From Candidatus Magasanikiibacteriota bacterium (GTDB taxonomy: Bacteria > Patescibacteriota > Patescibacteriia > Magasanikbacterales > GWA2-37-8), in NCBI GenBank assembly GCA_041665405.1, contig JBAYIZ010000006.1, forward strand, positions 407-64,406: a stretch of DNA of 64,000 nt. The letters are read 5' to 3'. Each line of letters begins with the position of its first letter. Position 1 is the stretch's first letter. This document shows, piece after piece, positions 11,007 through 63,660 of this stretch. Position numbers and translations under genes: made by a program. The notes beneath the pieces are model-generated. The model was given only the letters and a program-made list of their open reading frames with translations, was not told where the DNA came from and searched no databases.

Positions 11007-11420
11007 TCAGCGCGCCTTGGGGGCGGCTGCTTCTCGCAGTTCGGCCAGCTTCCTGTCTACCTTTGGGGTGCCGAGGTGTTGCTTGGCCGCGAACACGAGC
11101 TTTGCGCGGGCAGATTGCACCGCCCTGTTCGAAGGACGACGGCCGGGTGGAGTCAAAGCCACCACCGCCTGCAACATTGCCTCCGTCGTCTGCTCGTCAC
11201 CCTGCTTGTACTCCCTGAGCGTGAACAGGACCTTCTCCACCTTCTCGTGGAGATCCCAGGACTCGCGCCAATACGGCCTGTCTTCGCCGGAATGGAACTT
11301 GTCGAGCATGGAGTGAGCCCTCCTCGACCTGAAGTAGCAAAGGACCAACACAAGCATCGACACGATGTTCACCGCAACACTGATACTGTGCCACATAGAA
11401 ATCCCCACTTCCTTCACCAT
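11007..11420 (-). CDS. small single-pass membrane protein encoded in G+C-rich islet 1
   Basis: The frame has G/C-rich third positions. It has an N-terminal TM segment (ISMWHSISVAVNIVSMLVLVLCYF) and a helical charged tail. The start could be ATG 11420, or ATG 11396 (preceded by AAGGAAGTGG). The track start at 11486 is probably an over-extension. Confidence 0.5.
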   Translation of the reverse strand: MVKEVGISMWHSISVAVNIVSMLVLVLCYFRSRRAHSMLDKFHSGEDRPYWRESWDLHEKVEKVLFTLREYKQGDEQTTEAMLQAVVALTPPGRRPSNRAVQSARAKLVFAAKQHLGTPKVDRKLAELREAAAPKAR

Positions 11421-11571
11421 TGCTGACGAAGATGTTAGCTCTCTAGTTGGCGCGGGATGACACATCCACGCCCTTGCGACAAGCAAGCGGCAGCCCAGCT
11501 ACCTCTACTTTTTCCTTACCAAAAGAAAAACTAGCCGTAGCTTGGCCAAAATATATTTCAAAGAACGTGTA

Positions 11572-11678: not shown

Positions 11679-13715
11679 ATGATAAATTTTGAACAAGAAC
11701 TCAACCCGCAACAGCTGGACGTCGTGAAAAATGGCGACGGGCCTTGTTTGGTTTTAGCTGGGGCGGGATCGGGGAAAACTCGCACTATTACTTATCGGGT
11801 TGCCTATTTGTTGGAACAAGGTGTTGGCCCAGAAAATATTTTGTTGGTAACTTTTACCAATCGAGCGGCGAATGAAATGATTGAACGGGTAAGAAATTTG
11901 ATGAGTGGGGATTCCCGTTTGCACGGGAATGACATGCCGTGGTCAGGAACATTTCACCACATTGCCAATAAAATTTTACGACACTACGCACCACATTTAG
12001 GATACAAAAATAATTTTACTGTTTTGGATTCCGACGACAGCCAGGCGTTGATAAAATTGTGTATCAAAGAATTTAAAACCACCGAAAAATTTCCTTCGGC
12101 GAAAGTTGTGGGCGCAATTATTAGTTTTGCTCGTAATTCTCAAAAAAGTATTGAAGAAGTAATTGAAGATAAATTTAATAGCTGGTGGCACCTGTCTAGA
12201 ACTATTGGCGATGTCAGCTCACGATACGAACAAAAGAAAAAAGAATCCAACGCAATGGATTTTGATGATCTACTAATTAATTTTGCATTGTTATTAAACA
12301 CCCCAGCAATTCAAGAAAAGTTTTCCAATCAATTCAAATATATTTTGGTAGATGAGTATCAAGACACCAACAAACTACAAGCGAATATTATTGATAAATT
12401 AGCCAAAATACACCGTAATTTGTTGGTAGTTGGTGATGACGCCCAAAGTATTTATTCTTTCCGTGCGGCTGATATAAAAAATATTTTAAATTTTGAAGAA
12501 AAATATTCTGATGCGAAAATTTTTCGTTTGGAAATAAATTATCGTTCTCACCAAGAAATTTTGTCTTTGGCCAATAATGTTATCGCCAACAATCGTCATC
12601 AATATCCAAAAAAATTAAAAGCAGTAAAAGAAAATGGCATAAAACCAAATTTATATCCAAAAAATGATCAATCCGACGAAGCGAGTTTTATTGTAAAAAA
12701 AATAAATGAACTGATTGAACAAGGAACTCCAGAACACAAAATCGCTGTGCTGTTTCGTGCCGCTCATCATTCTCAAATGCTCGAAATGGAATTAGCCAAA
12801 GCAGGAATCGCTTATGATTATCGTGGCGGTTTGCGATTTTTTGAACGCGCTCACATCAAAGATGTTTTGAGTTATCTCAGAATATTAAATAATTTATCTG
12901 ACACCTCTGCGTGGTTGCGTATTCTCCAACACGAAGAAGGAATCGGACCGTCGGCTGCCAATAAAATTATTTCTGCCGTGCAAAAACTAGAAAAAATTGA
13001 TGACATAAAAAATCTTGGGGAAGTTTTAGGTGGAAAAACCCAAACCGGTTTTAATAATTTCTTAAAAATTTTTAATGCTCTCTTGGAATCGTATATTCCA
13101 GAAAGCAGCCCTGGTGATTTAATCCAATCCATTATCAGTTCGAATTATAGCGACTATTTGGAAGCAGAATTCATAGATAGTGATGACCGAAAAAAGGATT
13201 TGGAACAAATGGCCACCTTTGCCACCAAACACAAAAATTTATCTGATTTTTTGGCCGAATCTAGTTTGCAAGAGTCGTTTGCCCACCCGACATCCAACCA
13301 AACACAGACAAACAACCAAAAAAGGTTGGTGCTTTCCACTATTCATCAGGCCAAAGGACTGGAGTGGGAAGCGGTTTTTATAATCAATGTAGCCAACGAC
13401 GCCTTTCCCAACAGTCGTGCTTTGGCCGAAAGTGAAGGTCTGGAAGAAGAACGCCGTTTGTTTTATGTCGCTATTACTCGTGCCAAAAAACACTTAATTT
13501 TGACTTATCCAATGTCAAATGAGGGTTGGGGCTCCTCGCTGGGCGGTCCAAGCTTGTTTTTGTCTGAAATTAGCCAAGATTTGATTGATGACCACTCATT
13601 ATTATCCTATAAAAGCACTGTTTTTGATAAAAATGAAGAAATTCAATATATTAACGAAGATGAACCAATAAATATCCAACCTGGTAGTTTTTTGCGCAGT
13701 ATTGATGACTTATAA
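11679..13715 (+). CDS. UvrD/PcrA/Rep-family ATP-dependent DNA helicase
   Basis: Walker A motif (AGAGSGKTRT), motif Ia (TFTNRAANEM), DEYQDT, motif VI (VAITRAKK). Confidence 0.92.
   Translation: MINFEQELNPQQLDVVKNGDGPCLVLAGAGSGKTRTITYRVAYLLEQGVGPENILLVTFTNRAANEMIERVRNLMSGDSRLHGNDMPWSGTFHHIANKILRHYAPHLGYKNNFTVLDSDDSQALIKLCIKEFKTTEKFPSAKVVGAIISFARNSQKSIEEVIEDKFNSWWHLSRTIGDVSSRYEQKKKESNAMDFDDLLINFALLLNTPAIQEKFSNQFKYILVDEYQDTNKLQANIIDKLAKIHRNLLVVGDDAQSIYSFRAADIKNILNFEEKYSDAKIFRLEINYRSHQEILSLANNVIANNRHQYPKKLKAVKENGIKPNLYPKNDQSDEASFIVKKINELIEQGTPEHKIAVLFRAAHHSQMLEMELAKAGIAYDYRGGLRFFERAHIKDVLSYLRILNNLSDTSAWLRILQHEEGIGPSAANKIISAVQKLEKIDDIKNLGEVLGGKTQTGFNNFLKIFNALLESYIPESSPGDLIQSIISSNYSDYLEAEFIDSDDRKKDLEQMATFATKHKNLSDFLAESSLQESFAHPTSNQTQTNNQKRLVLSTIHQAKGLEWEAVFIINVANDAFPNSRALAESEGLEEERRLFYVAITRAKKHLILTYPMSNEGWGSSLGGPSLFLSEISQDLIDDHSLLSYKSTVFDKNEEIQYINEDEPINIQPGSFLRSIDDL
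11911..11933. repeat. ATTCCCG palindromic mini-element inside the helicase gene
   Basis: ATTCCCGTttgcACGGGAATGAC, translated as (G)DSRLHGND between helicase motifs Ia and Ib. Confidence 0.7.
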
Positions 13716-22772: not shown

Positions 22773-23159
22773 ATGAAAAATACCAAAAAAATTTTAATAG
22801 TGGAAGACGAAAAACCAATCGTCGAAGCTCTCACTATTAAACTTACTAAAGAAGGCTACGAGCCACATTTTGCCACAACTGGAGAAGCTGGGTTGGCTTT
22901 GACAAAAGATCTTCACCCAGACTTAATTTTGTTAGATTTCATTCTGCCAGATATGGACGGCTTGTCATTCCTCAAAACCCTGCGGCTGGATAAATGGGGC
23001 AAATCTGCTCAAGTGCTAATATTGACCAACCTCAGTGATGGCAAAATAGCCGACGAAGTGGCTGAATATGGGGTTTTTGACTATCTGATCAAAGCCGACT
23101 GGCGCCTAGACGATGTGGTGAAGAAGGTGAAAGAAAAAGTAGGCAGAGGAAACAAATAA
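22773..23159 (+). CDS. single-domain response regulator
   Basis: REC motifs ILIVEDE, DLILLDFILPDMDG, and K near the C-terminus. There is no output domain. Confidence 0.88.
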   Translation: MKNTKKILIVEDEKPIVEALTIKLTKEGYEPHFATTGEAGLALTKDLHPDLILLDFILPDMDGLSFLKTLRLDKWGKSAQVLILTNLSDGKIADEVAEYGVFDYLIKADWRLDDVVKKVKEKVGRGNK

Positions 23160-23348
23160 CTCCACAAACAAAAACATCCCGACTAAATCGAGATGTTTTA
23201 TTTTTAAAGCGTTTATATCACTCGCACAATCTGAAAACAAATTTTATTTTCAAATTGCGCGGCGAGTGACATCTACCGCGTCTGCCCCACCGCCCGCTTG
23301 TAGCGAGTGGGGCTACGATGGCTAGTCTCTACAAATTAGCCCTTCCAT

Positions 23349-23822
23349 CTAGAAGGTGCCCGCCCCCAAGGCGAGTTGGACCTCCCATCCGAAGGAGTTC
23401 TTCTCCACGACGTCCTGTTGCCAGCCGACAGGGGCTTTCAGGAAAACGCGGGCACGCCACAGCTTCATACTGACCATCGGACCAGCCCCGTACAACAGCC
23501 CGTCGTTGCCCTTCTGTCCAGAAAGGACCCCGCCGAAGTTGAACGTGAGCCCATCAACGATCACGTCATAGGTGACGCCGTAGGCCATGCCGTAGCCCGA
23601 TACTTGGGTCGGAACCCAGAACTGGGCGAAGTGGGTCGTGTGACCATCCGGCTGGACCAAGTAGAGGCCCATGCCGATGTCGGTGCCGTCCTCAAACCCG
23701 GCGTGTTGCACGAACAGGCCGGCCCCACCAGTCTCCGGACCAGGACCCTCAGCCAGGGCGACTGAAGGAACTGCGAAAAGGACGACGCTCACGATGACGA
23801 AAAACCACGCGATGTGCTTCAT
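23349..23822 (-). CDS. secreted small beta-barrel-like (OMP-like) protein encoded in G+C-rich islet 2
   Basis: ATG 23822 is preceded by GGAG at 7 nt. Signal peptide is MKHIAWFFVIVSVVLFAVPSVALA|EG. It has Gly/aromatic-rich alternating strands and a C-terminal ...LALGAGTF. Third codon positions are G/C-rich. The track start at 23957 lies in the AT-rich leader and is probably spurious. Confidence 0.6.
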   Translation of the reverse strand: MKHIAWFFVIVSVVLFAVPSVALAEGPGPETGGAGLFVQHAGFEDGTDIGMGLYLVQPDGHTTHFAQFWVPTQVSGYGMAYGVTYDVIVDGLTFNFGGVLSGQKGNDGLLYGAGPMVSMKLWRARVFLKAPVGWQQDVVEKNSFGWEVQLALGAGTF

Positions 23823-23994
23823 GGATTTACTCCGAAAACTAGAGTTCATCGGTACCCAGCCGACACACCACGCGACAATCATTGTCGAGAGGTAAGGGTG
23901 ATTATTTATTCCTATATACATTAGAAATACATAATTTCCTTTACCTCTTTGAGACATTATTTATCCATTATAATTTAAAAAGAACTAACTGAAC

Positions 23995-25154: not shown

Positions 25155-25240
25155 CAAAGGGTAACTTTTTCGCTTTTTTTGCCCGCGAGGGCAAAAGGAT
25201 GAGCCTCGGCTCATAACCCGCTCAAAAGTAACCCTTTGCT
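25155..25240 (+). ncRNA. candidate structured RNA / terminator-embedded repeat, copy 1
   Basis: Outer stem is GCAAAGGGT.../...ACCCTTTGC. It encloses the conserved core TTTTTCGCTTTTTTTGCCCGCGAGGGCAAAAGGATGAGCCTCGGCTCATAACCCGCTCAAAAG. Related copies are at 38645 and 48340. Confidence 0.5.
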
Positions 25241-42876: not shown

Positions 42877-44157
42877 TTATTTCAATATTTTTTCTTTCAG
42901 CCAGGCGACCACTTTTTTGTTTTGAATAGTGGCGGCTAGAGTGTCTAGGACTTCTTGGCGCTTGAGAGCCTCTTCTACTTTTGGATCGTTCTTGTATGTT
43001 ACTTTGATAAGTTCGATTTCTTTGTTGAGTTCTTCTTTTTCTACTTTGATATTGTTTTCTTTGGCGATCTGACGAGAAATAATGGCGGCCTTCACGCGAG
43101 TGAGAGCACGCTCGGCAAAATCATTGGCAATTTCTTCCTCAGTCTTTTTTACATCCTTCAAATATTTTTCAAATTCTATTCCTTGTTCCTGCAAACTGTT
43201 TTTTAATTCATAAAACATTTTTTGTTTTTCTGAAGTTATCAAAACATCTGGCACCTCACTAAACTCACTGGCCAAAATTACTTTTTCCAAAAGTTCCGCT
43301 TCGATGCGTTGGTCTTCTTTGCTCTCCGCTTCTTGTTTTAGGTTGGTCATCAAAATGTCTTTCAAAGCCTCAACGCTTTTTTGTCCAAGCTTGGCGGCAA
43401 GCTCGTCGTTGATTTCTGGGTATTCGATTGAATATACTTCGTTTACCTTGATATTGAAATCAACATTTTTTCCAGCCAAATGTTTTTGGTAATGTTCGTC
43501 TGGAAATTTTAGAGAAAATTCTTTAACTTCATCTTTTTTCAAACCAACCAATTGTTCAGCAAATCCTGGAATATAGTGTGGTTCGTTCAAATATACTTGA
43601 TGTTTTGGAGCTTGACCACCCTCAACACCCACTTTGTCGATAGACATGTTCATCGCTACTTCTACCTTATCTTCTTTGGTAGCGGAGCCTTCCTTGATCA
43701 CTTCTATCGCTTGCATTTTGCGCAAGTTGTCCAACACGTCATTAATTTCTTTGTCTCCAACCACCACTTCTTTTTTCTTGGCATTAATTTTTGTTAAGTC
43801 AGCCAATTTTACAGAAGGCAAAAGTGCGGCCACAGCTTTGAAAACAAAATCATTGTTTGGAGCCATTTTTTCAATAGTAATTTCTGGCATACCAACAGTT
43901 TCTAACTTTTCTGCCTTTACTGCTTCAAAAAAATTCTTTTCAACAATGGACTGTAACGCTTCTTCCAAAATTTTAATCTCACCAAGAGATTGTTTCACAA
44001 TATCATAAGGAGCTTTGCCTGGACGGAAACCGTGAATGGCGGCGCGCTGGGAAAGACGACCGGCGGCATCCTCCATGTTTTTTTGGTAATCGGTAGGAGT
44101 GACAGTGATCACCAGTTCTACTTGTGATTTTGGTAGTTGTTTTAAAACGTGAGCCAT
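42877..44157 (-). CDS. tig: trigger factor
   Basis: The internal start MAHVLKQLPKSQVELVITV... and GFRPGKAP (ribosome-binding signature) are present. The track start at 44202 is probably an extension. Confidence 0.9.
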   Translation of the reverse strand: MAHVLKQLPKSQVELVITVTPTDYQKNMEDAAGRLSQRAAIHGFRPGKAPYDIVKQSLGEIKILEEALQSIVEKNFFEAVKAEKLETVGMPEITIEKMAPNNDFVFKAVAALLPSVKLADLTKINAKKKEVVVGDKEINDVLDNLRKMQAIEVIKEGSATKEDKVEVAMNMSIDKVGVEGGQAPKHQVYLNEPHYIPGFAEQLVGLKKDEVKEFSLKFPDEHYQKHLAGKNVDFNIKVNEVYSIEYPEINDELAAKLGQKSVEALKDILMTNLKQEAESKEDQRIEAELLEKVILASEFSEVPDVLITSEKQKMFYELKNSLQEQGIEFEKYLKDVKKTEEEIANDFAERALTRVKAAIISRQIAKENNIKVEKEELNKEIELIKVTYKNDPKVEEALKRQEVLDTLAATIQNKKVVAWLKEKILK

Positions 44158-44271
44158 ATATGTATGATTAAAAATACTTCGCAATATTATCTTAAAACAC
44201 AAAAAAAGTCAATTTTATGGCTGTGGTATTGCTTTTTTGAGGATGTTGGTGTATATTTTTTAAATCCACCC

Positions 44272-44529
44272 GTGGCCAGGTCGTGTTATATAGACACAGC
44301 CTCGGCGACTATAGCGAAAGAGGGGAAACCATGGCGCGAGCCAAACCGGCAACGGACACGTGTTGAGGTACATGTTCGATTCCAGTTCAACCTCAGGCCG
44401 CAACAACGGGCTGAGGAGGCCACGCAGAAGGCCAAGAAGTGGCAGAGGGACAACCCGGGCTGGGGCTGTGATCCCAACCCCACGACGATCGGCAACGGCT
44501 ACGCTACCTTCAGGGCTCGTCGCACCTGA
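44272..44529 (+). pseudogene. G+C-rich islet 3 ORF with unresolved start (possibly frameshifted or a gene fragment)
   Basis: G/C-rich third positions mark this frame from about 44380 to TGA 44527-29 (...QQRAEEATQKAKKWQRDNPGWGCDPNPTTIGNGYATFRARRT). The only SD+ATG (GAGGGG-N6-ATG 44331) is in another frame and stops after 11 codons. The in-frame candidates are GTG 44272, or the AT-rich extension at 44149. Confidence 0.3.
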
Positions 44530-44660
44530 CGACGATCAACCTCTTCGACGCACACCCCCAGTCGAGCACAAGTTGCTCCTGGGGGCGGGGCTTAGATGAA
44601 ATTATCCTTCCTGTCCTAAGTAGAAAAAATATTTTCTTTTTAGGACAAGGATAATTTCTT

Positions 44661-44698
44661 AAAATAAAAAATCTCGACGTTATGGTCGAGATTTTTTT
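44661..44698. terminator. bidirectional intrinsic terminator
   Basis: AAAAAATCTCGAC-gttatg-GTCGAGATTTTTTT. Confidence 0.75.
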
Positions 44699-44707
44699 GT
44701 GTTTGAG

Positions 44708-44731
44708 GATTCCCGCTTTCGCGGGAATGAC
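44708..44731. repeat. ATTCCCG palindromic mini-element, intergenic
   Basis: GATTCCCGCtttcGCGGGAATGAC, about 20 nt from the hppA stop. Confidence 0.75.
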
Positions 44732-44752
44732 AACACACGAAGAATGGTGTTT

Positions 44753-46747
44753 TTATTTTAGTAATAACCCTACAATTAACAGTGCTACGATATTAGCCAC
44801 CTTTATCATCGGATTGATAGATGGACCAGCAGTGTCTTTATATGGATCACCAACAGTGTCACCAGTGACAGCGGCTTGATGTGCAAAAGAACCCTTGCCA
44901 CCATAATTTCCAAGTTCAATATATTTTTTTGCATTATCCCAAGCGGCACCACCAGTAGTCATAGAAATAGCTACGAAAATACCAGTGACAATTGTTCCTA
45001 CCAACAAACCACCCAACGCTTCGATACCCAAGAAGTAACCAACCAAAATTGGCACGACCACAGGAATCAAAGATGGCACAATCATTTGTCCGATAGCTCC
45101 TTTGGTAACAATATCTACAGCTTTGCCGTAGTCTGGTTTTCCAGTGCCCTCCATAATTCCAGCGATTTCACGGAACTGACGACGAACTTCTTCAACTACT
45201 TGTCCGGCAACTTTACCAACAGATTCCATCAACATAGCACCAAACAAATATGGCAACAAACCACCAATAAATAATCCAACTAAAACTTTTGGATCATTAA
45301 TTAAAAATTGATATGAATCAGGAAGCTTGTGAGTGAAGTCAGCAAACAAAACTAGTGAAGCCAAACCAGCAGAGGCAATCGCATATCCTTTGGTCACAGC
45401 TTTGGTAGTATTACCAACTGCGTCTAGAGGATCAGTAACATTGCGTACGTCTTGAGACAGCTCAGCCATCTCTGCGATACCACCAGCATTATCAGTGATA
45501 GGTCCAAAAGCATCAATAGTAACGATAATACCAGCCAAAGACAACATACTAACTGCGGCCACAGCCACGCCGTACAAACCAGCTAAATAGTGAGAACCCA
45601 TCATGGCGGCCATAATCAAAAGTACTGGCAAAGCAGTGGACTTCATGGAAACAGCCAAACCAGCAATCACATTGGTACCATGACCAGTAGTACTAGCTTT
45701 GGCAATATGTTGAACTGGAGAATATTTTGTTGAAGTATAATAATCTGTCAAAGCTACCATCAAAGCAGTGAGTACCAAACCGATAATAGCACAATAAAAA
45801 ATGTTCATTACACTATATCCAACCAAACCACTCATCAACCATTTTGTAGCTGGATAAAAACCAATCAAAGCAATTACGCCAGCGGCAATTAATCCCTTGT
45901 ACAATGCTTTCATTACATTTTTGTCTTCACCTAATCGGATGAAGAATGTTCCTAATATAGAAGCGACGATAGAAATACCACCAAGCACAATTGGATAAAC
46001 TGCAACTTTATCATTGCTTGGGAAAAGTAATCCGCCCAAAATCATTGCGGCGATAGTAGTGATAGCATAAGTTTCAAAAAGATCGGCGGCCATACCAGCA
46101 CAGTCACCAACATTGTCCCCGACGTTGTCGGCAATCACAGCTGGATTGCGTGGATCATCTTCTGGAATTCCTTTTTCTACTTTGCCAACCAAGTCTGCAC
46201 CCACATCAGCGGCTTTGGTAAAGATACCACCACCGATACGAGCAAAAATTGAAATTAAACTTCCGCCAAAACCTAAACCAATCAAAGCGGACAAATCATG
46301 TGTTAAATAATAAAAACCAGAAACACCGAGTAGCCCCAAACCAGAAACTAACAAGCCAGTAACCGAACCACCTTTTACAGCCACATCAAGCGCTGGTTTG
46401 AAACCTTTTTTTGCGGCCTCAGCAGTACGCACGTTGGCTTTGACCGAAACCAACATACCAATAGTACCTGCCAAGCCAGAAAATACTGCACCCACTACGA
46501 AACCAAAAGCAGTAATCCAATCGATAGATAGTCCTAATAAAATAAAAACGATTACAGCGACATAAGCGATTGTCTTGTATTGTCGAGAAAGATAAGCTTT
46601 GGCACCATCTTGGATGGCACGAGCGATTGCCTGCATGCGATCATCGCCAGCTGGCTGTTTGAGAACCCAACGAATAAGCACACCGCCGTAAATGATGGCG
46701 ATAAGTGCTGGTAAAATTCCGCCTAACACTATAATCATAAGTGTCAA
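44753..46747 (-). CDS. hppA: membrane-bound proton/sodium-translocating pyrophosphatase
   Basis: 664 aa and polytopic. Signature motifs GGG(I/L)(F/Y)[24 protein letters not shown] and AAWDNAKK are present. Confidence 0.95.
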
Positions 46748-46843
46748 AGTTAAGATTTAAAAATTAAATTAAGAAGCAACGATGATTGGCTACAAGGTTG
46801 CCTCAGCCGATATCTTATGATAAAATAGCCCAATCGTCAAGGT

Positions 46844-48190
46844 ATGAAATATAACCTTTTATTAAAAATTTTGCGCTTTTTAGTGCATATTAAGCGATTC
46901 TCCTGGTGGATAGGTTCCGGCCTGTTTTTTGTGTCATCCGAGTTTATTGGGAAAACTTACCGGTTTTTTGCTTATTTTGGATTTAAAATCAATTTCTATT
47001 TAAAAAAAATAGGAATCGGTGGTGAGGCGGGATTGATAGCTCGCGACATTATTCAGCCCATAATTTTTATTTTATTGTTTATAGTAGCTATCCCACAAAC
47101 CAAACTTTTTACCCAAAAGAACGTTTTTTTGCCAGGCCAAAAAACACTAGCATTTAATTTGTTTGGTGGAACAGAAGAATATGAATTCGAGGAAGTGTCT
47201 GCCGAAGCCCCCCAGAGCAACATTACCCCTACTTACAATTGGAGAGCAGGTATAATTAGTGCAGATAATATTTCGAACCAATCCGAGCCAATAATTTTTG
47301 ATCAGGATTTGGCGGGGACATATGCTGGCGGTATGGCAATAAACAAACCACATATCATGACCGGAAGTATCACAACTGGTGGTTCTGGTAGAAAACAGAC
47401 GGTGGATTATGTGGTAGTGGCCGGCGATTCTCTCAGTGGTATTGCTAGTCGGTTTGGAGTGAACGTTGCCACTATTTTATGGGAAAATGGTCTGACATCA
47501 AAGGCTACATTAAAATTGGGACAAAAAATTAGTATTCCTCCTGCTAGTGGCGTGATGCATGTGGTGAAAAAGGGAGATACGCTTTTGAGAATTGCGAAAG
47601 TATACGGTGCCAAAGTTGAAGACATTGTTCAATTTAATAATTTGGATGAAGGCGGAAAAGATTTGCGTATTGGAGAAAAAATAATGGTGCCAGGTGGTGT
47701 GAAGGCAGAAGCAAAAGTGGCAGTGACGACGGTGAAGAATGGGAAAACTTATGTGACCGAACAAACAAGTTATAGTGCGGTGATTCGTCCGCCGGCTTCT
47801 TCACGTTCGGCTAGTGCGTCTGGTTTTGTGTGGCCGTCTGGAGTGAAAACTATTACTCAGTATTTTGGTTGGAAACACAATGGCCTAGATATTGCCGGTC
47901 CTTTTGAAACACCAAACTATGCCGCCAAAGCGGGCACGGTAGAATTTGCACAGTGTGGATGGAATCGCGGCTATGGTTGTTATGTGCAGATTAATCATGG
48001 CAATGGCGTGAAGACTTTGTATGGACACCACTCTCGTTTGTTAGTGTCGGCAGGTGAATATGTTGAGGCTGGACAGGTGATTGGTTTGATGGGCAATACT
48101 GGAAATGTACGCGGACGCACGGGTATTCATTTGCATTTTGAGGTGCAGGTGAATGGTGTGAGAGTGAATCCACTGGGGTATGTGAGATAG
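46844..48190 (+). CDS. LysM-domain M23 peptidoglycan metalloendopeptidase
   Basis: Two LysM repeats (YVVVAGDSLSGIA, HVVKKGDTLLRIA). M23 motifs HNGLDIA and GNTGNVRGRTGIHLHFEV. Confidence 0.9.
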   Translation: MKYNLLLKILRFLVHIKRFSWWIGSGLFFVSSEFIGKTYRFFAYFGFKINFYLKKIGIGGEAGLIARDIIQPIIFILLFIVAIPQTKLFTQKNVFLPGQKTLAFNLFGGTEEYEFEEVSAEAPQSNITPTYNWRAGIISADNISNQSEPIIFDQDLAGTYAGGMAINKPHIMTGSITTGGSGRKQTVDYVVVAGDSLSGIASRFGVNVATILWENGLTSKATLKLGQKISIPPASGVMHVVKKGDTLLRIAKVYGAKVEDIVQFNNLDEGGKDLRIGEKIMVPGGVKAEAKVAVTTVKNGKTYVTEQTSYSAVIRPPASSRSASASGFVWPSGVKTITQYFGWKHNGLDIAGPFETPNYAAKAGTVEFAQCGWNRGYGCYVQINHGNGVKTLYGHHSRLLVSAGEYVEAGQVIGLMGNTGNVRGRTGIHLHFEVQVNGVRVNPLGYVR

Positions 48191-48241
48191 TAAAAACTTT
48201 GACTTTTTATTTAAAAGTGGTATTATTTGAATACAAAATTT

Positions 48242-48312
48242 GGTACCGTTGCCAAGCAGTAAGGCAGAGCTCTGCAAAAGCTCTATGCGTGGGTGCAATT
48301 CCCACCGGTACC
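48242..48312 (+). tRNA. tRNA-Cys (anticodon GCA)
   Basis: Acceptor stem GGTACCG/CGGTACC, anticodon stem GAGCT/AGCTC with loop CU-GCA-AA, T-arm GTGGG-TGCAATT-CCCAC. A TTGACT-16-TATTAT promoter lies upstream. Confidence 0.85.
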
Positions 48313-48339
48313 TCGAAATAGCAGTAGTGCTGTAGAACA

Positions 48340-48437
48340 AACATCCCAGACAATGACTTTTTCGCTTTTTTCGACCGCGAGGTCGAAAGGATGAGCCTCG
48401 GCTCATAACCCGCTCAAAAGTAATTGTCTGGGATGTT
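48340..48437 (+). ncRNA. candidate structured RNA / terminator-embedded repeat, copy 3
   Basis: A 15-bp perfect outer stem (AACATCCCAGACAAT/ATTGTCTGGGATGTT) is followed by a T7 run. It encloses the core TTTTTCGCTTTTTTCGACCGCGAGGTCGAAAGGATGAGCCTCGGCTCATAACCCGCTCAAAAG. Confidence 0.55.
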
Positions 48438-48453
48438 TTTTTGTACCATAAAA

Positions 48454-48482
48454 TTGACTTTGTGTTTTTTATCAAGTAAAAT
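48454..48482 (+). promoter_or_regulatory. sigma70-type promoter reading into G+C-rich islet 4
   Basis: TTGACT-17 nt-TAAAAT. The composition switches to G+C-rich about 6 nt downstream. Confidence 0.6.
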
Positions 48483-48576
48483 ATTTTTGTGTCCCAAACG
48501 ACCGACGGTTCGCCGTTCGGTCACAACGACCACTTGCACCGCTCATCGGTGGTGGTCTCGAAAAGGAGAGAGAGCC

Positions 48577-48798
48577 ATGCGTGTGCTTCCCTCGATCCTG
48601 AACCAGAGCCGGAGACGGAGCGACAATTCCGCCGATTGCGGGCAGGTCGCGAGCTCCGAGGCCGACTTCATCCACAGGCAACTGCTCGAGCATGGCTTCT
48701 GCTCGGACATGAAGGAGGGCGCCGTCGGCACCGCCAACATGGTCGGCATCGTCTGTTCGACCGCGGCCGGCCGCGGAGCAGTAGTCCTCCTGGTGTAG
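48577..48798 (+). CDS. 73-aa protein of unknown function encoded in G+C-rich islet 4
   Basis: AAGGAG sits 8 nt before the ATG. By my codon-by-codon read, G/C at codon position 3 is very high in this frame only. Sequence: MRVLPSILNQSRRRSDNSADCGQVASSEADFIHRQLLEHGFCSDMKEGAVGTANMVGIVCSTAAGRGAVVLLV. Confidence 0.55.
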   Translation: MRVLPSILNQSRRRSDNSADCGQVASSEADFIHRQLLEHGFCSDMKEGAVGTANMVGIVCSTAAGRGAVVLLV

Positions 48799-48827
48799 GG
48801 CTCAGCTTCGTACGAGACAACCAGTGC

Positions 48828-48881
48828 GGCCGGACCGGGAGCTCCTTCGGGGGTTTCTGGTCCGGCCGTCGTTTCCTTTTT
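48828..48881 (+). terminator. GC-rich hairpin terminator after the islet 4 ORF
   Basis: GGCCGGACC...GGTCCGGCC (9 bp), followed by gtcgTTTCCTTTTTATT. Confidence 0.55.
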
Positions 48882-48962
48882 ATTATATTTAATACTCAAA
48901 GCGGGTATTTTTTTATTGCTCAAAAAAGGGTTTGCGTGTAAAATAAGAACGAATAATATTTT

Positions 48963-51638
48963 ATGTCAAAATTTGTAATTATTGATGGGAACGCTATTGT
49001 GCATCGTGCTTATCACGCTTTGCCTCCGATGAACACCAAAGACGGGGTGATGGTGAATGCGGTGTATGGATTTACTTCCATGTTGCTCAAGGTTTGGAAA
49101 GATTTGAGGCCCACGCATTTGTGTGTGAGTTTTGATGTGGCCGGTGGGACTTTTCGTCATGAGAAATTTGAGCAATACAAAGGTACGCGCGTGAAGGCGG
49201 ATCAGGAATTGTATGATCAGATGCCTTTGGTGCATGAAGTGGTGGAGGCGTTTAGTATTCCGATTTATGAAATGAAAGGGTATGAGGCGGATGATGTGAT
49301 TGGAACTGTGGTGCGTAGGATTGAAAACGAAGTGGACGAGGTGTATATTGTGACGGGTGATATGGACACCCTGCAATTGGTGGATGAAAAAATAAAAGTT
49401 TATACTTTGCGCAAAGGCATGAGCGATATTGTGATATATAATCCAGAAGAAGTAAAAAAGCGTTTTGGTTTTGGACCGGAATTGGTAATAGATTACAAAG
49501 CTTTGCGCGGAGATCCTTCGGATAATATTCCGGGGGTGCCTGGAATTGGTGAAAAAACAGCGACGGATTTGATTTTGAAATTTGGTGATTTGAAAGAAAT
49601 ATATAAAGTGGTAAACGCAGAAAAAGATAAAAAGAAAAGTGATTTATTTAGTTCGTCGGTTTTGAATAAATTATCGCAGGGTGAAAAAAGTGCACAGATG
49701 AGTTATGAATTGGCGACGATAGATTGTGCCGTACCGGGTTTGAATTTTAGTTTGGAAAATTGTGCGATGAGTGAATTTGATCATGATAAAATTTTGAAAT
49801 TATTTCAGAAATTTGAGTTTGTGTCTTTGATGAAACGGATTCCTGGGTTTGATAAGTATGATGTGGTGGAACCAGAAAAAACTACGACAGTAAAAAGCAA
49901 GAAAATGGCTGAATTAAATTTTAAAGAACTAGGGAATAAAAGCGAGGCAAAAGAATTGGTGGAGAAAATAAAAAAGAACGGGCAGTTTGCCTGTCGGGCG
50001 GCGATGAGTGGGAAAGATGTTTTGACCAGTGACTTTTTTGGGTTGGTGGTGATTGTGGAAAGTGAAGGGTATTTTGTTAAAAATAATTTGGTGGAAGAAT
50101 TTTTGCCGATTTTTGACGATGAAAAAATTGAATTGGTGGGGCATGATTTGAAACAATTGGTGAAGGTTTTATTATTGCAAAAACAGGAAATAAAAAACTC
50201 TTTGTTTGATGTAATGGTGGGGTCGTATCTGCTCAACCCAGGCAGTCGTGCTCATGATAGTGCCAGTGTGGTGTTGAAAATATTGGATAAAGAATTAAAG
50301 GTGGGTAGTGGGCAAGAAAGTTTATTCGGGGTAGATGCAAAAGCGTTGGCGGCGGAGTTATATTTAATATTACAAACTGTTGAAAAAATTAAAACTGAAT
50401 TGAACAAGACAGATAATTTGGGTTTGTTACAAAAAATAGAAATGCCGTTACTTTTGGTGTTGGCACAGATGGAATTAAATGGGATTGCGGTGGATTTGGA
50501 GATGCTCCAAAAATTATCGGTAGAAGTAAATGATAGTATTAAAAAAGTTTCCAAAAAGATTTTTGATTTAGCCGGAATGGAATTTAATATTTCTTCACCG
50601 TTGCAATTGAGGGAAGTATTATTTGAAAAACTGGATATTCCTGTCGAGGGAATAAAAAAAGGCAAGACCGGTTTATCTACTTCGGCTGAACAATTGGAAA
50701 AAATGCACGGGCTACATCCGATTATTAAAGAAATTGAAATTTATCGTGAGTTGGCTAAATTGCAAAATACTTATGTGGACGTATTACCGACTTTGATTAA
50801 TAAAAAAACAGGACGAATTCACACCACCTTTAATCAGGCGGTGACGGCCACCGGCAGGCTGTCTAGTTCTGAACCGAATTTACAGAACATTCCAATTCGT
50901 ACCGAGATCGGTCGTGAAGTGCGCAAGGCGTTTGTGTCTGAAAAGGGTAACGTGTTGATTAGTGCAGATTACTCACAGATTGAATTGCGAATTGTGGCTT
51001 CGATGGCGCAAGACAAACGGATGATGGAAATTTTTGAAAAAGATTTAGATATTCATAGAGCCACAGCGGCGGCGATCAATGGAGTTCCGCTAGAAGAAGT
51101 CACCAAAGAAATGCGTCGCGCGGCCAAAGAAATTAATTTTGGTGTGTTGTATGGTATGGGAACATACGGTCTAAGTTGGCGCGCGGAAATTTCTCATGCT
51201 CAGGCGAAAGAATTTATCCAAAAATATTTTGAACAATTTAGCGGGGTAAAGCAGTATATAGATCAGACATTGGAATTCACTAAGACAGAAGGATATTGTG
51301 AAACGCTATTTGGGCGCCGAAGATATTTGCCAGAATTGAGATCACAAAATTTTCAGATGCGCAGTGCGGCCGAACGCATGGCGATTAACCACCCTATCCA
51401 AGGCACAGCTGCCGATCTGATCAAGATGGCGATGATTGAAGTGGGAAAAAAATTGAAAGAATATCCAGAGGTAAGAATGCTTTTGCAAGTACACGACGAA
51501 TTGGTGTTAGAAGTGAAAAAAGGTGAAGAAGAAAAGATCGGCAAGATTCTCAAAGAGACGATGGAAAATGTGGTGAAGCTGAGGGTGCCGGTAAAGGTAG
51601 AGGTGAACATCGGACATAGTTGGGGGGAGATGAAATAA
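48963..51638 (+). CDS. polA: DNA polymerase I
   Basis: 5'-nuclease domain, central domain, and family A polymerase motifs (DYSQIELR, RRAAKEINFGVLYG, QVHDELV). Confidence 0.95.
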   Translation: MSKFVIIDGNAIVHRAYHALPPMNTKDGVMVNAVYGFTSMLLKVWKDLRPTHLCVSFDVAGGTFRHEKFEQYKGTRVKADQELYDQMPLVHEVVEAFSIPIYEMKGYEADDVIGTVVRRIENEVDEVYIVTGDMDTLQLVDEKIKVYTLRKGMSDIVIYNPEEVKKRFGFGPELVIDYKALRGDPSDNIPGVPGIGEKTATDLILKFGDLKEIYKVVNAEKDKKKSDLFSSSVLNKLSQGEKSAQMSYELATIDCAVPGLNFSLENCAMSEFDHDKILKLFQKFEFVSLMKRIPGFDKYDVVEPEKTTTVKSKKMAELNFKELGNKSEAKELVEKIKKNGQFACRAAMSGKDVLTSDFFGLVVIVESEGYFVKNNLVEEFLPIFDDEKIELVGHDLKQLVKVLLLQKQEIKNSLFDVMVGSYLLNPGSRAHDSASVVLKILDKELKVGSGQESLFGVDAKALAAELYLILQTVEKIKTELNKTDNLGLLQKIEMPLLLVLAQMELNGIAVDLEMLQKLSVEVNDSIKKVSKKIFDLAGMEFNISSPLQLREVLFEKLDIPVEGIKKGKTGLSTSAEQLEKMHGLHPIIKEIEIYRELAKLQNTYVDVLPTLINKKTGRIHTTFNQAVTATGRLSSSEPNLQNIPIRTEIGREVRKAFVSEKGNVLISADYSQIELRIVASMAQDKRMMEIFEKDLDIHRATAAAINGVPLEEVTKEMRRAAKEINFGVLYGMGTYGLSWRAEISHAQAKEFIQKYFEQFSGVKQYIDQTLEFTKTEGYCETLFGRRRYLPELRSQNFQMRSAAERMAINHPIQGTAADLIKMAMIEVGKKLKEYPEVRMLLQVHDELVLEVKKGEEEKIGKILKETMENVVKLRVPVKVEVNIGHSWGEMK

Positions 51639-59948: not shown

Positions 59949-61118
59949 ATGCTGATAAAAGACCTCCAATCTATCGGTTTTACCAAGAATCTATCTGAGG
60001 TTTATTTGTCTTTAGCCCAATTGGGAGGCCAGGCCAAAGCTGGGGAAATCATCAAAAAGACAGGTTTACACCGAAATATCGTTTATATTTGTTTAGACAA
60101 ACTAATAGAAAAGCAATTATTAACTAAAACCGAAGAACGCGGTGTTACTATTTATAAAACACTAGATCCAGCCCGACTAATGAATGAAATTCGAGAAAAA
60201 GAACAATTAACAACAAATATTATTGAAGAAATTGAAGCATTAAAAAAGCATCCAGACACTCAAGAAATAATTGTCCACGAAGGTTTGGAAGGTTTTAGAA
60301 ATTTCAATCTCTATACTTTGAAAAAAATCGAAGAAGGTGGCACATTGCAAGTGCTTGGTTCCATTGGAGATAAATGGTTTGAATACATGGGTGAAGAAAA
60401 GTACAAAGAATATATAAAAATACAAAACAAGAAAAAAATTAAGTGGGAGATGATTACTTATTTTGATTCAAAACGCGACAAACAATTTATTAATGACTAT
60501 CCAGAATTATGCGAGGTAAAATTATTACCGCAGACATATGATAATCCGGCCAGCATTTATATTTTTGGAGATACAATTTCAATAAATATTTTTACCGAAC
60601 CATTTTCGGTGATTGAAATAAAAAATCGCGCGGTGGCGGATGTATATAGAAATTATTTTAGTTTGTTGTGGAACCAAGAAGTGTTTACCTATCGCGGTTG
60701 GGATGCGATTGATAAAATTTTGTGTGCGAATTTGGAAGATGGATTTACTTATGATGTTTTTGGGGCAACATATGGTGTGGGTACAAAAGAGGAACAAGAT
60801 CGCGTGTTGGAATTTTTTATGGAGAACCACAGAAAGACCGCACACTTTAAACCAAATAGACGATTGATATTTTTTGAACAAGATCGTGAGCAGGCGGCTA
60901 AAGAAGTTTCTCCGTTGGATGCAGACACTCGTAAAAATGTTCGTTTGCGTTTTCTGTCAGACAAATATTTTTCGCCGATGGAGACACATTTGTTTAAAGA
61001 TAAAGTAATTTTAATTTTTTCTTTTGGCGAACCAATCGCGACAGTTTATACCAATCCAAAAATAATTGAAGTTTACAAAAAACAATTTGAGTTGTGGTGG
61101 GGGATGTCGGTGGAATAA
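59949..61118 (+). CDS. TrmB-like wHTH regulator with a large C-terminal domain (paralog 2)
   Basis: N-terminus LQSIGFTKNLSEVYLSLAQLGGQAKAGEIIKKTGLHRNIVYICLDKLIEKQLL. It shares GLHRN(I/L)VY and (L/F)WNQE with paralog 3. Confidence 0.75.
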   Translation: MLIKDLQSIGFTKNLSEVYLSLAQLGGQAKAGEIIKKTGLHRNIVYICLDKLIEKQLLTKTEERGVTIYKTLDPARLMNEIREKEQLTTNIIEEIEALKKHPDTQEIIVHEGLEGFRNFNLYTLKKIEEGGTLQVLGSIGDKWFEYMGEEKYKEYIKIQNKKKIKWEMITYFDSKRDKQFINDYPELCEVKLLPQTYDNPASIYIFGDTISINIFTEPFSVIEIKNRAVADVYRNYFSLLWNQEVFTYRGWDAIDKILCANLEDGFTYDVFGATYGVGTKEEQDRVLEFFMENHRKTAHFKPNRRLIFFEQDREQAAKEVSPLDADTRKNVRLRFLSDKYFSPMETHLFKDKVILIFSFGEPIATVYTNPKIIEVYKKQFELWWGMSVE

Positions 61119-61128
61119 AATTTAAAAA

Positions 61129-61162
61129 CAAAAAACCGATTGCAGATTGCAGTCGGTTTTTT
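61129..61162 (+). terminator. conserved TrmB-module terminator (copy 2)
   Basis: AAAAAACCGATTGCagatTGCAGTCGGTTTTTTG. Confidence 0.8.
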
Positions 61163-61308
61163 GATAACTTCTTGAGCTCAACAAGATGTTGGAGTGAATG
61201 AGCGGTCACTACCAGCCGCGTGACTTTTTGTTTTACCGGTAGTCACAAACCGGATGATCCCAGACCCCTCATCAGCGGACCATTGAATTGTCCTGAAACT
61301 TTGCACCT

Positions 61309-61707
61309 CTACGCCTGTTCGCGACAGGGCAGGCATTCGTAGCCCACCCAAAGGCCGTTGGCAAAGGTGAAGTCGAAGTCCCAGCGGTTGTCACCACCGT
61401 ACCAGCAGAGGCTGGCAGTGTATTTGAATCCATTGGGGGCGAGAAGAGTGGTGCCAGTGAGCACGATCTTCTTCTTACGCATTTTCATCGGAATCTGGTC
61501 TTGGTGGTCAAGCAGTTGCTGGCCGTCACGCACTCCAAGGACGCCATTCCGACGACGTGCGCGTTCGCGCAATTCGGAGCCCTTGATGCATTCCTCGCCA
61601 CGCTTGAGGCACGACTCGATCCGGAGCTTGTTGATGTGAAGATCTGCAATTGGATCACAGTCTTCCACAACCTTAAACTCCACCCTGTTCCAAACGAATG
61701 TATTCAC
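61309..61707 (-). CDS. 132-aa cytoplasmic protein of unknown function encoded in G+C-rich islet 5
   Basis: The GTG start is preceded by AAGGAGG at 6 nt. The frame is open across the whole G+C-rich segment. No signal peptide and no family recognised. Confidence 0.6.
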   Translation of the reverse strand: MNTFVWNRVEFKVVEDCDPIADLHINKLRIESCLKRGEECIKGSELRERARRRNGVLGVRDGQQLLDHQDQIPMKMRKKKIVLTGTTLLAPNGFKYTASLCWYGGDNRWDFDFTFANGLWVGYECLPCREQA

Positions 61708-61918: not shown

Positions 61919-63031
61919 ATGTTAGAACAAAAACTAGAAAAACTTGGTTTTGGAAAAAACGAAGTGAAAGTATATCTAGCTCTTTTTGATTTGGGTAAAT
62001 GTAAAGCCAAACAAATCATTGATAACACAGGTCTTCATCGTAATCTTGTCTACACGGCACTTGATGATTTGATTGGAAAGAAATTAATTTCAAAAGTCGA
62101 GAGTAATGGAATTTTTTTATTTTGGGTTAATAGCCCTGAACTTTTGAACGAAATAATAGAAGAAAAAGCTATAACGGCAAAAGAAGTGATTGAACAATTA
62201 AAAAAGAAAAGCGCCAGTCAACCTCGTGAGATATTAATTTATGAAGGTGAAGAGGGTGTGAAGAAAAGTCGCACCAAAGTTTTAACATATGGAAAAGGAG
62301 ATACATTTTATATGTTAGGAACAAAAGCGAGTTTCTCGCCTTCGATGGAAAAATTTTCAAAGGAGTTTGATTCGCTAAGAATTAAAAAGGGAATTTATTC
62401 AAAAATTTTAGTCGAACATGATGTGAATAAAGATGAACTTAAACATCTTAATAAAATGCCACTTAGTGAAGCCAAGCACCTTCCTCTTGATTTGGAAATG
62501 CCTATTTGGTTTTCAGTTATTCAAGATTATTTGGAAATTGGCATCCCAGGCGTTGATCCACTGATTTTTTCGATAAAAAATAAAGCGGTGGCTGGGGCAA
62601 TAAAAAAATTTATAGATTTTTTCTGGAATCAAGAATCCGAAGTTGTTACAGGCGCAAAGGCTTTACAAGAGATTATGTTGGAATCCATTGATTATGGTGA
62701 GTTGAAAGGTATCGGCGCAAAAGGCAATTTTTTTGAAAATTATCCGGGATTTTTTAATGATATAAAAAAGCGAGCAGTAATGAAACAAGGACTGGTCTGG
62801 AGAAACATTGTTGATCCAAGTATGAAAGGGCATGAGATTACAAAATTTTTGTGGACTAAAACAAAATATAATTTATCCGATACAAAAAATCCCAATGTTG
62901 TTTGGTTGTATGGCCCGAAAGCTGTGATTATAAATTGGGCGGATAAAGAACCTGTGATGTTTGTTTCTACAAATAAGGCGCTAGTGCAAAGTTATAATGA
63001 TTATTTTGAGGAGATGTGGGGTAAAGATTAA
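61919..63031 (+). CDS. TrmB-like wHTH regulator with a large C-terminal domain (paralog 3)
   Basis: N-terminus MLEQKLEKLGFGKNEVKVYLALFDLGKCKAKQIIDNTGLHRNLVYTALDDLIGKKLI. Confidence 0.75.
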   Translation: MLEQKLEKLGFGKNEVKVYLALFDLGKCKAKQIIDNTGLHRNLVYTALDDLIGKKLISKVESNGIFLFWVNSPELLNEIIEEKAITAKEVIEQLKKKSASQPREILIYEGEEGVKKSRTKVLTYGKGDTFYMLGTKASFSPSMEKFSKEFDSLRIKKGIYSKILVEHDVNKDELKHLNKMPLSEAKHLPLDLEMPIWFSVIQDYLEIGIPGVDPLIFSIKNKAVAGAIKKFIDFFWNQESEVVTGAKALQEIMLESIDYGELKGIGAKGNFFENYPGFFNDIKKRAVMKQGLVWRNIVDPSMKGHEITKFLWTKTKYNLSDTKNPNVVWLYGPKAVIINWADKEPVMFVSTNKALVQSYNDYFEEMWGKD

Positions 63032-63041
63032 CACTAAGAAC

Positions 63042-63075
63042 AAAAAACCGATTGCGATATGCAGTCGGTTTTTTA
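63042..63075 (+). terminator. conserved TrmB-module terminator (copy 3)
   Basis: AAAAAACCGATTGCgataTGCAGTCGGTTTTTTA. Confidence 0.8.
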
Positions 63076-63168: not shown

Positions 63169-63660
63169 TCACAGGAATGCGATTCCCAGTGACGGCTGGA
63201 ACAGCAACGAGTAATCGCCGCCATCCAGGGTCTTCGCCAGTCCAAATGCCATGGACAGCGACAGACCGTTTCCGATTCCGTAGGCCAGGCCGGTGCCCAG
63301 ACCAACCAAGTCGGAAGACGGCTTGCCGCCGTAACCGACATTGCGCTGGTAGAGCACGCTGGCCTGGGTGGACCAACGATCAGTCAGTCCCAGCGACACA
63401 CCTGCAGAGAGGCGTGGGCTGGGCTTGCAACTGTCGTTGGGGGTGGCCAGCCCGATTCCGCCCGCGATGGACACCTTGTTGGAGACCTTCTCCGACAGCG
63501 AGATGTCGTAGCGGGTGGAGGCCGAGGCGGGGGTGAGCCCGTCCTTCAGGAGGACGACGTAGCCCTCCCGGATGTTGAAGACCGGGGTCAGGGCGCTGGC
63601 CGAAGCCGAGACACCGCTCAGAACCACGGCCACCAGGACGATCAGGGTGGAGATCTTCAT
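63169..63660 (-). CDS. secreted small beta-barrel-like (OMP-like) protein encoded in G+C-rich islet 6
   Basis: GAGGTG lies 4 nt before the ATG. Signal peptide is MKISTLIVLVAVVLSGVSASASA|L. The protein has Gly-rich alternating strands and a C-terminal ...QPSLGIAFL. Confidence 0.6.
   Translation of the reverse strand: MKISTLIVLVAVVLSGVSASASALTPVFNIREGYVVLLKDGLTPASASTRYDISLSEKVSNKVSIAGGIGLATPNDSCKPSPRLSAGVSLGLTDRWSTQASVLYQRNVGYGGKPSSDLVGLGTGLAYGIGNGLSLSMAFGLAKTLDGGDYSLLFQPSLGIAFL

Follow-up and report, generated by a model that had tools for sequence, protein, structure and literature searches.

A probable frameshifted small-gene cassette with a conserved 3' hairpin module between tig and hppA in a Candidatus Magasanikbacteria genome

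The spacer between the genes for Trigger factor (tig) and a membrane pyrophosphatase (hppA) was analysed in a 64,000-nt stretch of contig JBAYIZ010000006.1, hereafter the window. The window, assigned to Candidatus Magasanikbacteria via its Tig protein, has a GC content of 38% and contains six GC-rich islets; the third of these, islet 3, lies in this spacer and peaks at 66% GC. Both genes are on the minus strand, and the spacer extends from 44158 to 44752, between the start codon of tig (ATG 44157) and the stop codon of hppA at 44753. On the plus strand it holds a small open reading frame (ORF) followed by a stack of hairpins. Islet 3 is probably a small-gene cassette of a Magasanikbacteria clade, the copy in this genome being frameshifted right after its start.

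The synteny of the hppA-tig gene pair is kept among relatives, and its spacer takes several forms. In L002, L004, L020, L041, L043, L049 and L052 it is short (110-145 nt) and 'empty', with a terminator and the tig promoter only; in relatives with a small plus-strand ORF it measures 450-640 nt. The two ends of the window spacer (terminator and palindrome; tig promoter) align with the short spacers, and its middle, at about 44215-44657, has no counterpart in them. Neither target-site duplication nor terminal repeats were seen where the cassette edges were compared with empty sites. The tig promoter (TTGACT-17-TAATAT, minus strand, 44184-44212) was located by a consensus scan and is kept in all relatives, including those with empty spacers. 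Back to back with it lies a putative plus-strand promoter for the small gene (44229-44257), composed of a -35 box TTGCTT (44229-44234), a 17-nt spacer and a -10 box TATATT (44252-44257). The scan missed this promoter because its -35 box has only three of the six consensus bases. Its function is suggested by alignment with the promoters of five homologues (L044, L001, L048, L100 and L103), which read TTGACT-17-TAT(A/G)xx or TACAAA and have TTGACT in all five cases. The aligned promoter would put the predicted transcript start at about 44264-44266. The site has alternative occupants as well: L003/L042 and L007 carry small membrane-peptide ORFs there, and L003 and L007 retain the GC hairpin and the bulged hairpin described below. 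The spacer of L009 contains an insert of 74% GC, and that of L051 a 66% GC insert with a possible 28-codon ORF (read by eye).

The first-pass annotation, made from the window sequence, had reported that G/C-rich third positions mark one frame from about 44380 to the TGA at 44527, and that the only Shine-Dalgarno (SD) sequence with an ATG is in a different frame. Both observations hold. GC by codon position over 44380-44526 in this frame (frame 1), which closes at TGA 44527-44529, is 0.53/0.55/0.84 (permutation p=0.0007); codon periodicity is absent from 44272-44337 (p=0.74). These third positions also suit one minus-strand frame, so the strand is not given by the GC content of third positions (GC3) alone. 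The SD sequence GAGGGG (44320-44325) and ATG 44331-44333 open, on direct reading of the sequence and the ORF list, a frame of 11 codons, MARAKPATDTC (44331-44366), that stops at TGA 44364-44366. This short frame, a by-product of the frame break described below, has no counterpart in the five homologues. GTG 44272 and GTG 44149 are in frame 1, which contains no ATG, GTG or TTG start between 44272 and its stop; the starts near UGA 44364 (GTG 44360, TTG 44363 and ATG 44372) are all in frame 2. Two other ORFs of the islet were rejected: a minus-strand ORF of 69 aa, for its off-frame-like composition and the lack of an HMM (hidden Markov model) match or SD, and a frame-2 ORF of 79 aa, for its Arg/Pro-rich off-frame-like composition and the lack of an HMM match, an SD or any third-position GC excess. 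In the frames looked up, no gene caller had recorded the small ORF of islet 3.

Five relatives have a plus-strand small ORF (49-72 aa) at the same spot, on the strand opposite tig and hppA and with an SD-ATG in frame. The homologue of L001 has 49 aa (MKIREVTIFHQIGGSSSLVIKQWLCDNPDWILRGDAIGTNFVTRFVVVG) and that of L044 has 72 aa (MSVQSNQSSEPKGHRKWVTVNFRPNPRSYSATIKNAQRKLNQWFNKNQGWKRVDDIPAKMTTNQGQFMVVRL); those of L048/P0001, L100/P0002 and L103/P0003 have 61 aa each (MPKGYLKEVNIGIKATEFTQANEVGGAAIAAWLAENSAWTLRPNSVKLTLGQVRFLVELVG and two variants). A profile search with the family sequences recovered P0001-P0003; on a 464-kb contig, the gene for P0002 is flanked by those for Trigger factor and H_PPase. 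The ORFs of L048, L100 and L103 are each 186 nt long and free of indels. Their differences concentrate at position 3 in two of the three pairs (25 vs 8 and 14; 25 vs 12 and 8), and each pair differs by synonymous changes in 10-22 codons. By these sequence patterns the family is evidently protein-coding. Its members share the motif W-x3-N-x2-W...F, in which the residues W, N, W and F do not vary in any member, the window peptide included.

The homology of the window copy was found only via the orthologous spacers of relatives, and not via the window peptide by itself. Of the 1,820 six-frame segments of the window, an HMM built from the ORFs of L001, L044 and L048 placed 44146-44526 at the top, with an alignment that reads EVHVRF...KKWQRDNPGW; the E-value of this segment was 0.054 and that of the next best 1.6. 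The visual resemblance of the window peptide to the L001 ORF was not significant by BLAST and was later backed by profile, position and flanks. The flanks are well preserved between the window and L044, with 78% identity over the promoter region and 80% over 149 nt of 3' hairpins and terminator. In AlphaFold2 predictions based on a 4-sequence alignment, P0002 (predicted local distance difference test score, pLDDT, 83.8) has a predicted beta-alpha-beta fold; the window peptide 44338-44526 (pLDDT 80.0) is predicted as beta-alpha-beta-beta, with the same order of elements as P0002. The family is one of lineage-specific, fast-evolving proteins of 49-72 aa, predicted to be cytoplasmic with an alpha+beta fold. 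Neither Pfam nor PHROG gave a significant profile match (best E-values 0.04-0.2, below curated cut-offs), Pfam being empty for every frame, and searches of JGI metagenome contigs and of IMG/VR gave no match to the window peptide.

The position of the frame break follows from a pairwise DNA alignment with L044. The start signals of the window, AAAGAGGGGAAACCATGGCG, align with those of L044, AAACGGGGGAATCCATGTCG. In L044 the ATG is followed by eight codons (24 nt) and then by GAG CCC AAA GGG CAC CGC; in the window it is followed by GCGC (44334-44337) and then by GAG CCA AAC CGG CAA CGG. The net difference in length from ATG to GAG is 20 nt, which is not a multiple of 3, so that ATG 44331 stands in the +1 register relative to the homologous codons, which begin at 44338. 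From there the homologous frame of the small protein, EPNRQRTRVEVHVRFQFNLRPQQRAEEATQKAKKWQRDNPGWGCDPNPTTIGNGYATFRARRT and then TGA, runs to 44529 on the plus strand, as identified by HMM rank, invariant residues, GC3 (0.73-0.84) and AlphaFold2. The assembled sequence around the break contains ATGGCGCGAG. An in-frame SD-ATG is present in all five homologues and lacking in the window copy, which is filed as a disrupted member of the family.

Base composition bears on the origin of the gene. GC3 is 0.73 in the window ORF vs 0.31-0.37 in tig, hppA and the LysM peptidase gene; among the homologues it is 0.74 in L044, 0.66-0.79 in the L048 group and 0.50 in L001. Against the 78-80% identity of the flanks, only 48% of the 4-fold degenerate positions in tig agree between the window and L044, a level that amounts to saturation. 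Since four of the five homologues have a GC3 of 0.66-0.79 despite saturated neutral sites, the gene is not a recent import into this genome, and its high GC has been maintained rather than inherited from such an import. The persistence of the high GC3 of the family across species cannot be explained by mutation bias. The first-pass suggestion of a decaying, frameshifted captured gene is therefore supported in one part only: the aligned start signals, one nucleotide out of register with GAG 44338 in the window and in frame in five homologues, bear out the frameshift, and capture is not supported, since the family is native to this spacer in a clade, occurring at the same tig-hppA spot in several Magasanikbacteria species with its GC3 kept.

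Behind the stop codon, all four hairpin elements listed in the first-pass annotation lie where it had placed them. The first is a GC hairpin at 44550-44587 on the plus strand, which folds as GCACA-CCCCCAG-TC-GAGCA-loop-TGCTC-CTGGGGG-CG, with the stem CCCCCAG 44555-44561 / CTGGGGG 44579-44585 and the inner stem GAGCA/TGCTC. It is followed by a bulged AT-rich hairpin of 61 nt (plus strand, 44598-44658) with a lower stem of 10-11 bp, a 3-nt 5' bulge (UCC), a 9-bp upper stem and an AU-rich apex. Next comes a bidirectional intrinsic terminator (44661-44698; A-run, stem and T-run 44666-44697), identified by scan, which serves hppA on the minus strand and the small gene on the plus strand and is kept in relatives with and without the cassette. 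The 139-nt 3' region has a folding energy of -53.8 kcal/mol vs -29.3 +/- 3.4 for shuffled sequences (z = -7.3). In all seven cassette-bearing relatives examined, the same order follows the stop: a C-rich/G-rich stem-loop, often after GCAC(A)CC, an AT-rich hairpin of about 60 nt, and the terminator. The C-rich/G-rich stem-loop is found in this place in L044, L001, L048, L100, L103, L003, L007, islet 2 and L005, and the change of its stem from CCCCCAG/CTGGGGG in the window to CCCCGGC/GCCGGGG in L044 is compensatory.

The AT hairpins of seven loci share one register (10-bp lower stem, 3-nt 5' bulge, 9-bp upper stem), with 99% of cells paired and 13 of 19 pairs changed on both sides. A covariance model of these hairpins, R1, gave further copies on the ORF-sense strand in islet 2, L007, L043 and L005. 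The copy in islet 2 (window 23273-23214) lies 3' of an unrelated ORF and scored 41.5 bits (E=1.5e-8) vs 21.6 bits antisense; that in L043 is downstream of tig, and that in L005 is 3' of another unrelated GC-rich ORF. Across 11 copies, 98.6% of cells are paired and compensatory changes occur in 16 of 19 pairs, compared with 30-45% for slid controls. The window hairpin 44598-44658 scored 70.7 bits on the plus strand vs 42.7 on the minus strand. It has the features of the R1 family (10-bp lower stem, 3-4 nt 5' bulge, 9-bp upper stem, ORF-sense orientation, position 3' of a GC hairpin) and belongs to it. Six copies close with a G-U pair and four with G-C; since G-U would turn into a C-A mismatch on the opposite strand, a structure formed by RNA (or by a single strand) in the sense of the ORF is favoured. 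Islet 2 and L005, which differ in locus and have unrelated ORFs, share 76% identity over a 136-nt stretch of their 3' modules that takes in the GC hairpin, the bulged hairpin, the spacer and the start of the terminator. On this evidence the hairpin stack is a conserved, portable 3' module with a shared terminator and not a product of chance. The hairpin pair may act at the RNA level on the ORF-sense strand, possibly in 3'-end protection or processing or as a protein-binding site.

A phage origin of the AT hairpin was considered and rejected: eight IMG/VR matches to the lower-stem pattern score only on the bases by which they had been selected, without the bulge and upper stem. Rfam at gathering score gave two tRNAs only in the whole window, and an Rfam E-value scan of 44100-44800 gave terminator- and miRNA-like noise only, far below threshold. 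ARAGORN found no tmRNA. The fourth element, a palindrome ATTCCCGC-N4-GCGGGAAT just after the hppA stop (44708-44731, core 44709-44728; no strand assigned), is a dispersed REP-like repeat. It has three copies in the window (10175-10194, 11911-11930 and 44709-44728) vs 0.01 expected, two of them inside long ORFs. Many relatives, among them cassette-less ones (e.g. L002), have variants of it behind the hppA stop, and it recurs at further places in L001 and L005. By this distribution the ATTCCCG palindrome is separate from the cassette.

The explanation favoured here, which is held to be probable, is that islet 3 is a self-contained cassette transcribed on the plus strand, divergent from tig and convergent with hppA. 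It would comprise its own promoter, a 5' untranslated region of about 65 nt, an SD and ATG, an ORF some 64 codons long and, as its structured 3' end, a GC hairpin followed by the bulged AT hairpin and the bidirectional terminator shared with hppA. Ribosomes starting from the sole SD-ATG would make an 11-residue peptide and stop at 44364. Because 4 nt, and not a multiple of three, separate ATG 44331 from GAG 44338, the family protein could not be made from its own start. In its -35 box, TTGCTT, the window copy departs from the family consensus a second time. Beyond the break the frame stays open, the invariant residues are kept and the fold is still predicted, which means that the lesion is recent or that it is an assembly indel; of these two, a real lesion is judged the more probable.

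Several observations weigh against this explanation. The similarity of the window peptide to the family is weak (35% identity to L044, HMM E=0.054), and the match convinces only because it is joined by shared position, orientation and conserved flanks. Searched alone, the window peptide had no match in 5.8 billion proteins, nor in 1.84 billion representatives by exhaustive HMMER. An open 63-codon frame in DNA of 62% GC has a chance of about 16% to occur without selection, as estimated from base composition. The box TTGCTT may still function as a -35 element. No independent assembly of 44331-44340 was retrieved, so that a sequencing or assembly indel is possible at this point. Exact-protein look-ups of tig and hppA, each with two starts, and of the two alternative islet ORFs gave no match; two of the queries began with V/L where the database would carry M, which may account for their lack of a match.

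That the gene is intact in the organism, and the extra base in ATG-GCGC-GAG an indel of sequencing or of a metagenome-assembled contig, is the most serious of the other explanations, though it is regarded as doubtful. The frame is otherwise clean, with no stop in 63 codons, invariant residues kept and a fold predicted, and the lesion amounts to a single small change within a GCGCG run. Other assemblies of this population break up around the spacer: contigs L104 and L105 end before it, and L065 begins inside tig. However, over 2.9 kb elsewhere the window is matched with 100% identity by contigs of a second assembly, which speaks for an accurate consensus; JGI 3300037810 holds identical contigs. 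Indel errors usually fall in homopolymers, which GCGCG is not, and the -35 box is degraded as well relative to five homologues, in agreement with real decay. A structured non-coding RNA, in which the ORF is incidental and the scaffold of promoter, GC hairpin and bulged hairpin forms the conserved unit, would fit the better conservation of flanks and hairpins than of the ORF and the recurrence of the same 3' module behind unrelated ORFs. GC-rich islands in AT-rich genomes often are structured RNAs, and the minus strand of 44255-44600 folds at z=-4.1. This explanation is nevertheless quite improbable, given the equal lengths of the L048, L100 and L103 ORFs, the third-position differences in two of their three pairs, the GC3 periodicity of the window ORF and the SD-ATG before each copy. 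The AlphaFold2 predictions, confident with a 4-sequence alignment, the lack of an Rfam family match and the plus-strand fold of the body, at only z=-2.2, also argue against it.

Two further explanations were weighed. Translation from GTG 44272, or from upstream positions 44149/44164, would give an uninterrupted protein of 85-126 aa with no frameshift. As the first-pass annotation had proposed, GTG 44272 is in frame and frame 1 is open back to 44149. The use of either as a start is very unlikely: no SD precedes GTG 44272, and the predicted transcript start lies a few bases before it, leaving no room for a ribosome-binding site. The stretch 44272-44337 shows no periodicity, the homologues begin at SD-ATG with upstream sequences that are not conserved as coding, and an extension to 44149 crosses the tig promoter and start region. 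Least credible is a regulatory device, in which the strong SD-ATG and the short ORF ending at a UGA within a longer frame serve as an 11-codon leader peptide or as the first part of a programmed +1 frameshift joining the ATG frame to frame 1. The leader peptide plus recoding arrangement of the first-pass annotation was of this kind. All five homologues lack both a short upstream frame and a frame change. Frame-1 homology to L044 begins at 44338, 7 nt past the A of the ATG, so that the 'leader' is the gene read out of frame, overlapping the homologous coding region. Frameshifting of the prfB type depends on a conserved shift site, on re-pairing of the tRNA at a slippery codon before the stop and on an SD-like stimulator about 3 nt upstream. 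Here the stop context is ACG UGU UGA G, in which GUU offers tRNA-Cys no re-pairing; no slippery site is present and no SD-like stimulator precedes the stop. No frame-1 start codon is available near the UGA for re-initiation.

The cassette was compared with known systems. It resembles morons, autonomous promoter-ORF-terminator units of deviant composition first described in lambdoid phages, in having one small ORF, supplied with a promoter and terminator of its own, between conserved genes, in a composition off that of its host (GC3 0.73 vs 0.31-0.37), and in being present, absent or replaced at the site in close relatives. Unlike morons, it lies in a chromosome of the Candidate Phyla Radiation (CPR) between housekeeping genes and not in a prophage, has no viral relatives found (including in IMG/VR) and bears a structured 3' module. 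The AT hairpin shares with ERIC/IRU, Correia, BOX/RUP and REP/BIME elements the form of an imperfect palindrome of about 60 nt that is transcribed with the upstream ORF, has compensatory pairing and occurs in more than one copy per genome by terminators. It differs from them in sequence, to which it shows no relation (no Rfam match), in its number of two copies in 64 kb, and in that it always comes after a GC-rich small ORF and a C-rich/G-rich hairpin; its mobility is only conjectural. In integron cassettes (ORF plus attC, including the Vibrio cholerae repeats), unrelated small ORFs likewise each precede an imperfect hairpin that is conserved, strand-specific and contains unpaired bases. The islet cassettes differ in being solitary, in lying in different spacers and in having their own promoters. 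The attC core sites R''/R' (RYYYAAC/GTTRRRY) are absent from the base of the AT hairpin, which reads GAAATTATCC...GGATAATTTC, and no integrase was found among the neighbouring genes (tig, hppA, LysM peptidase, CoA-transferase), to which that search was confined.

Programmed +1 frameshifting of the prfB type and leader-peptide attenuators also have a short ORF with a good SD that ends at a UGA inside a longer +1 frame. Islet 3 lacks the slippery codon and stimulatory SD of the former, with no re-pairing at ACG UGU UGA G and no upstream SD-like sequence, and the arrangement is not kept in the homologues; a prfB-like frameshift was rejected for this reason. A leader-peptide attenuator, which would need a conserved short ORF set apart from the regulated gene and competing terminator and antiterminator hairpins in between, was rejected as well, the short frame overlapping the coding region from the third codon with no terminator in 44366-44527. 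Type I toxin-antitoxin loci resemble the cassette in their small ORFs, strongly structured mRNAs, location in spacers and variation between strains, and the occupants of L003/L007 are small membrane peptides. The family protein is instead hydrophilic with an alpha+beta fold, and no antisense RNA or overlapping promoter was found. The cassette belongs to none of the moron, ERIC/Correia/REP, integron, prfB-like or attenuator classes.

A broader proposal is that Magasanikbacteria, and perhaps further CPR bacteria, possess a class of small-gene cassettes not yet described, whose defining 3' module is the GC hairpin with the bulged AT hairpin. Unrelated GC-rich, fast-evolving ORFs would then replace one another upstream of the module at hot spots in intergenic regions, with the module serving as a recombination or mobility site similar to attC/VCR or as an RNA regulatory handle. 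This proposal is speculative and, on balance, unlikely. If correct, it would account for the six GC-rich islets in the 64-kb window, islet 3 being a cassette caught decaying. Nothing relevant on GC-rich small-gene islets in CPR genomes was found in the literature. A single repeat family covering the six islets was rejected, as no nucleotide or tblastx similarity was found between them beyond terminators and promoters.

The remaining islets were surveyed briefly. Islet 1 (window 10900-11390), located in a spacer, has a candidate minus-strand ORF at 11486..11007 with a GC3 of 0.72 and no Pfam match. Islet 2 (23140-23960) has a minus-strand ORF at 23822..23349 that encodes 157 aa with a signal peptide, is beta-rich and ends in ...GAGTF; behind it lie a CCCCAC...GTGGGG hairpin, the bulged AT hairpin 23273-23214 and a bidirectional terminator (23166-23204). 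The L005 ORF that bears the islet-2-like 3' module adjoins hppA. Islet 4 (48445-48880) is a cassette with a TTGACT-17-TAAAAT promoter, the SD AAGGAGAG and an ATG. Its GC-rich ORF (48577..48798; 73 aa) was called as a gene in JGI contig L040, and its end is formed by a GC hairpin with a T-run (48827-48868). The window and contig L040, which comes from another assembly, agree at 100% identity over 46365-49224, and islet 4 is therefore no assembly chimera. Islet 5 (61235-61675), likewise in a spacer, has a candidate minus-strand ORF at 61707..61309 with a GC3 of 0.67 and no Pfam match. Islet 6 (63169-63660) has an ORF of 163 aa with a signal peptide and a weak match to an outer-membrane beta-barrel (PF13505, E=1.3e-3), which is unexpected in a CPR bacterium. 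It is recorded at NCBI as hypothetical protein WCV83_02540 and has one other homologue (78% identity) in 5.8 billion proteins. The islet 6 homologue in L106 occupies the place of islet 5, indicating that islets change position between genomes.

Other repeats were observed in the window. Two neighbouring same-strand genes of 389 and 370 aa (59949-61118 and 61919-63031) have near-identical terminators (61129-61163 and 63042-63074), and behind each lies a GC-rich islet, not the same one in the two cases. In L106, the counterpart of gene 59949-61118 has a TrmB domain (PF01978). A repeat of about 68 nt is present at 25164-25231 and 48356-48423 (94% identical, core AAAGGATGAGCCTCGGCTCATAACCCGCTCAAA) and has no Rfam match. 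The copy at 48356-48423 lies in the loop of a hairpin with 26-nt arms (48336-48441), followed by a T-run, just past a tRNA-Cys gene. A related copy occupies the hppA-tig spacer of L006 (L006 3880-3894).

In sum, the frameshifted ORF by itself is ordinary, being a decaying or mis-assembled accessory gene, and it illustrates how small genes get missed. This AT-rich, reduced CPR genome bears several self-contained small genes with a GC3 of 0.7-0.8. The analysis adds an uncharacterised small-protein family and a covarying bulged-hairpin module, absent from Rfam, that is common to unrelated GC-rich small genes. Should the module prove to be a mobility or regulatory handle, it could be used to detect and sort the many orphan small genes that CPR bacteria carry.

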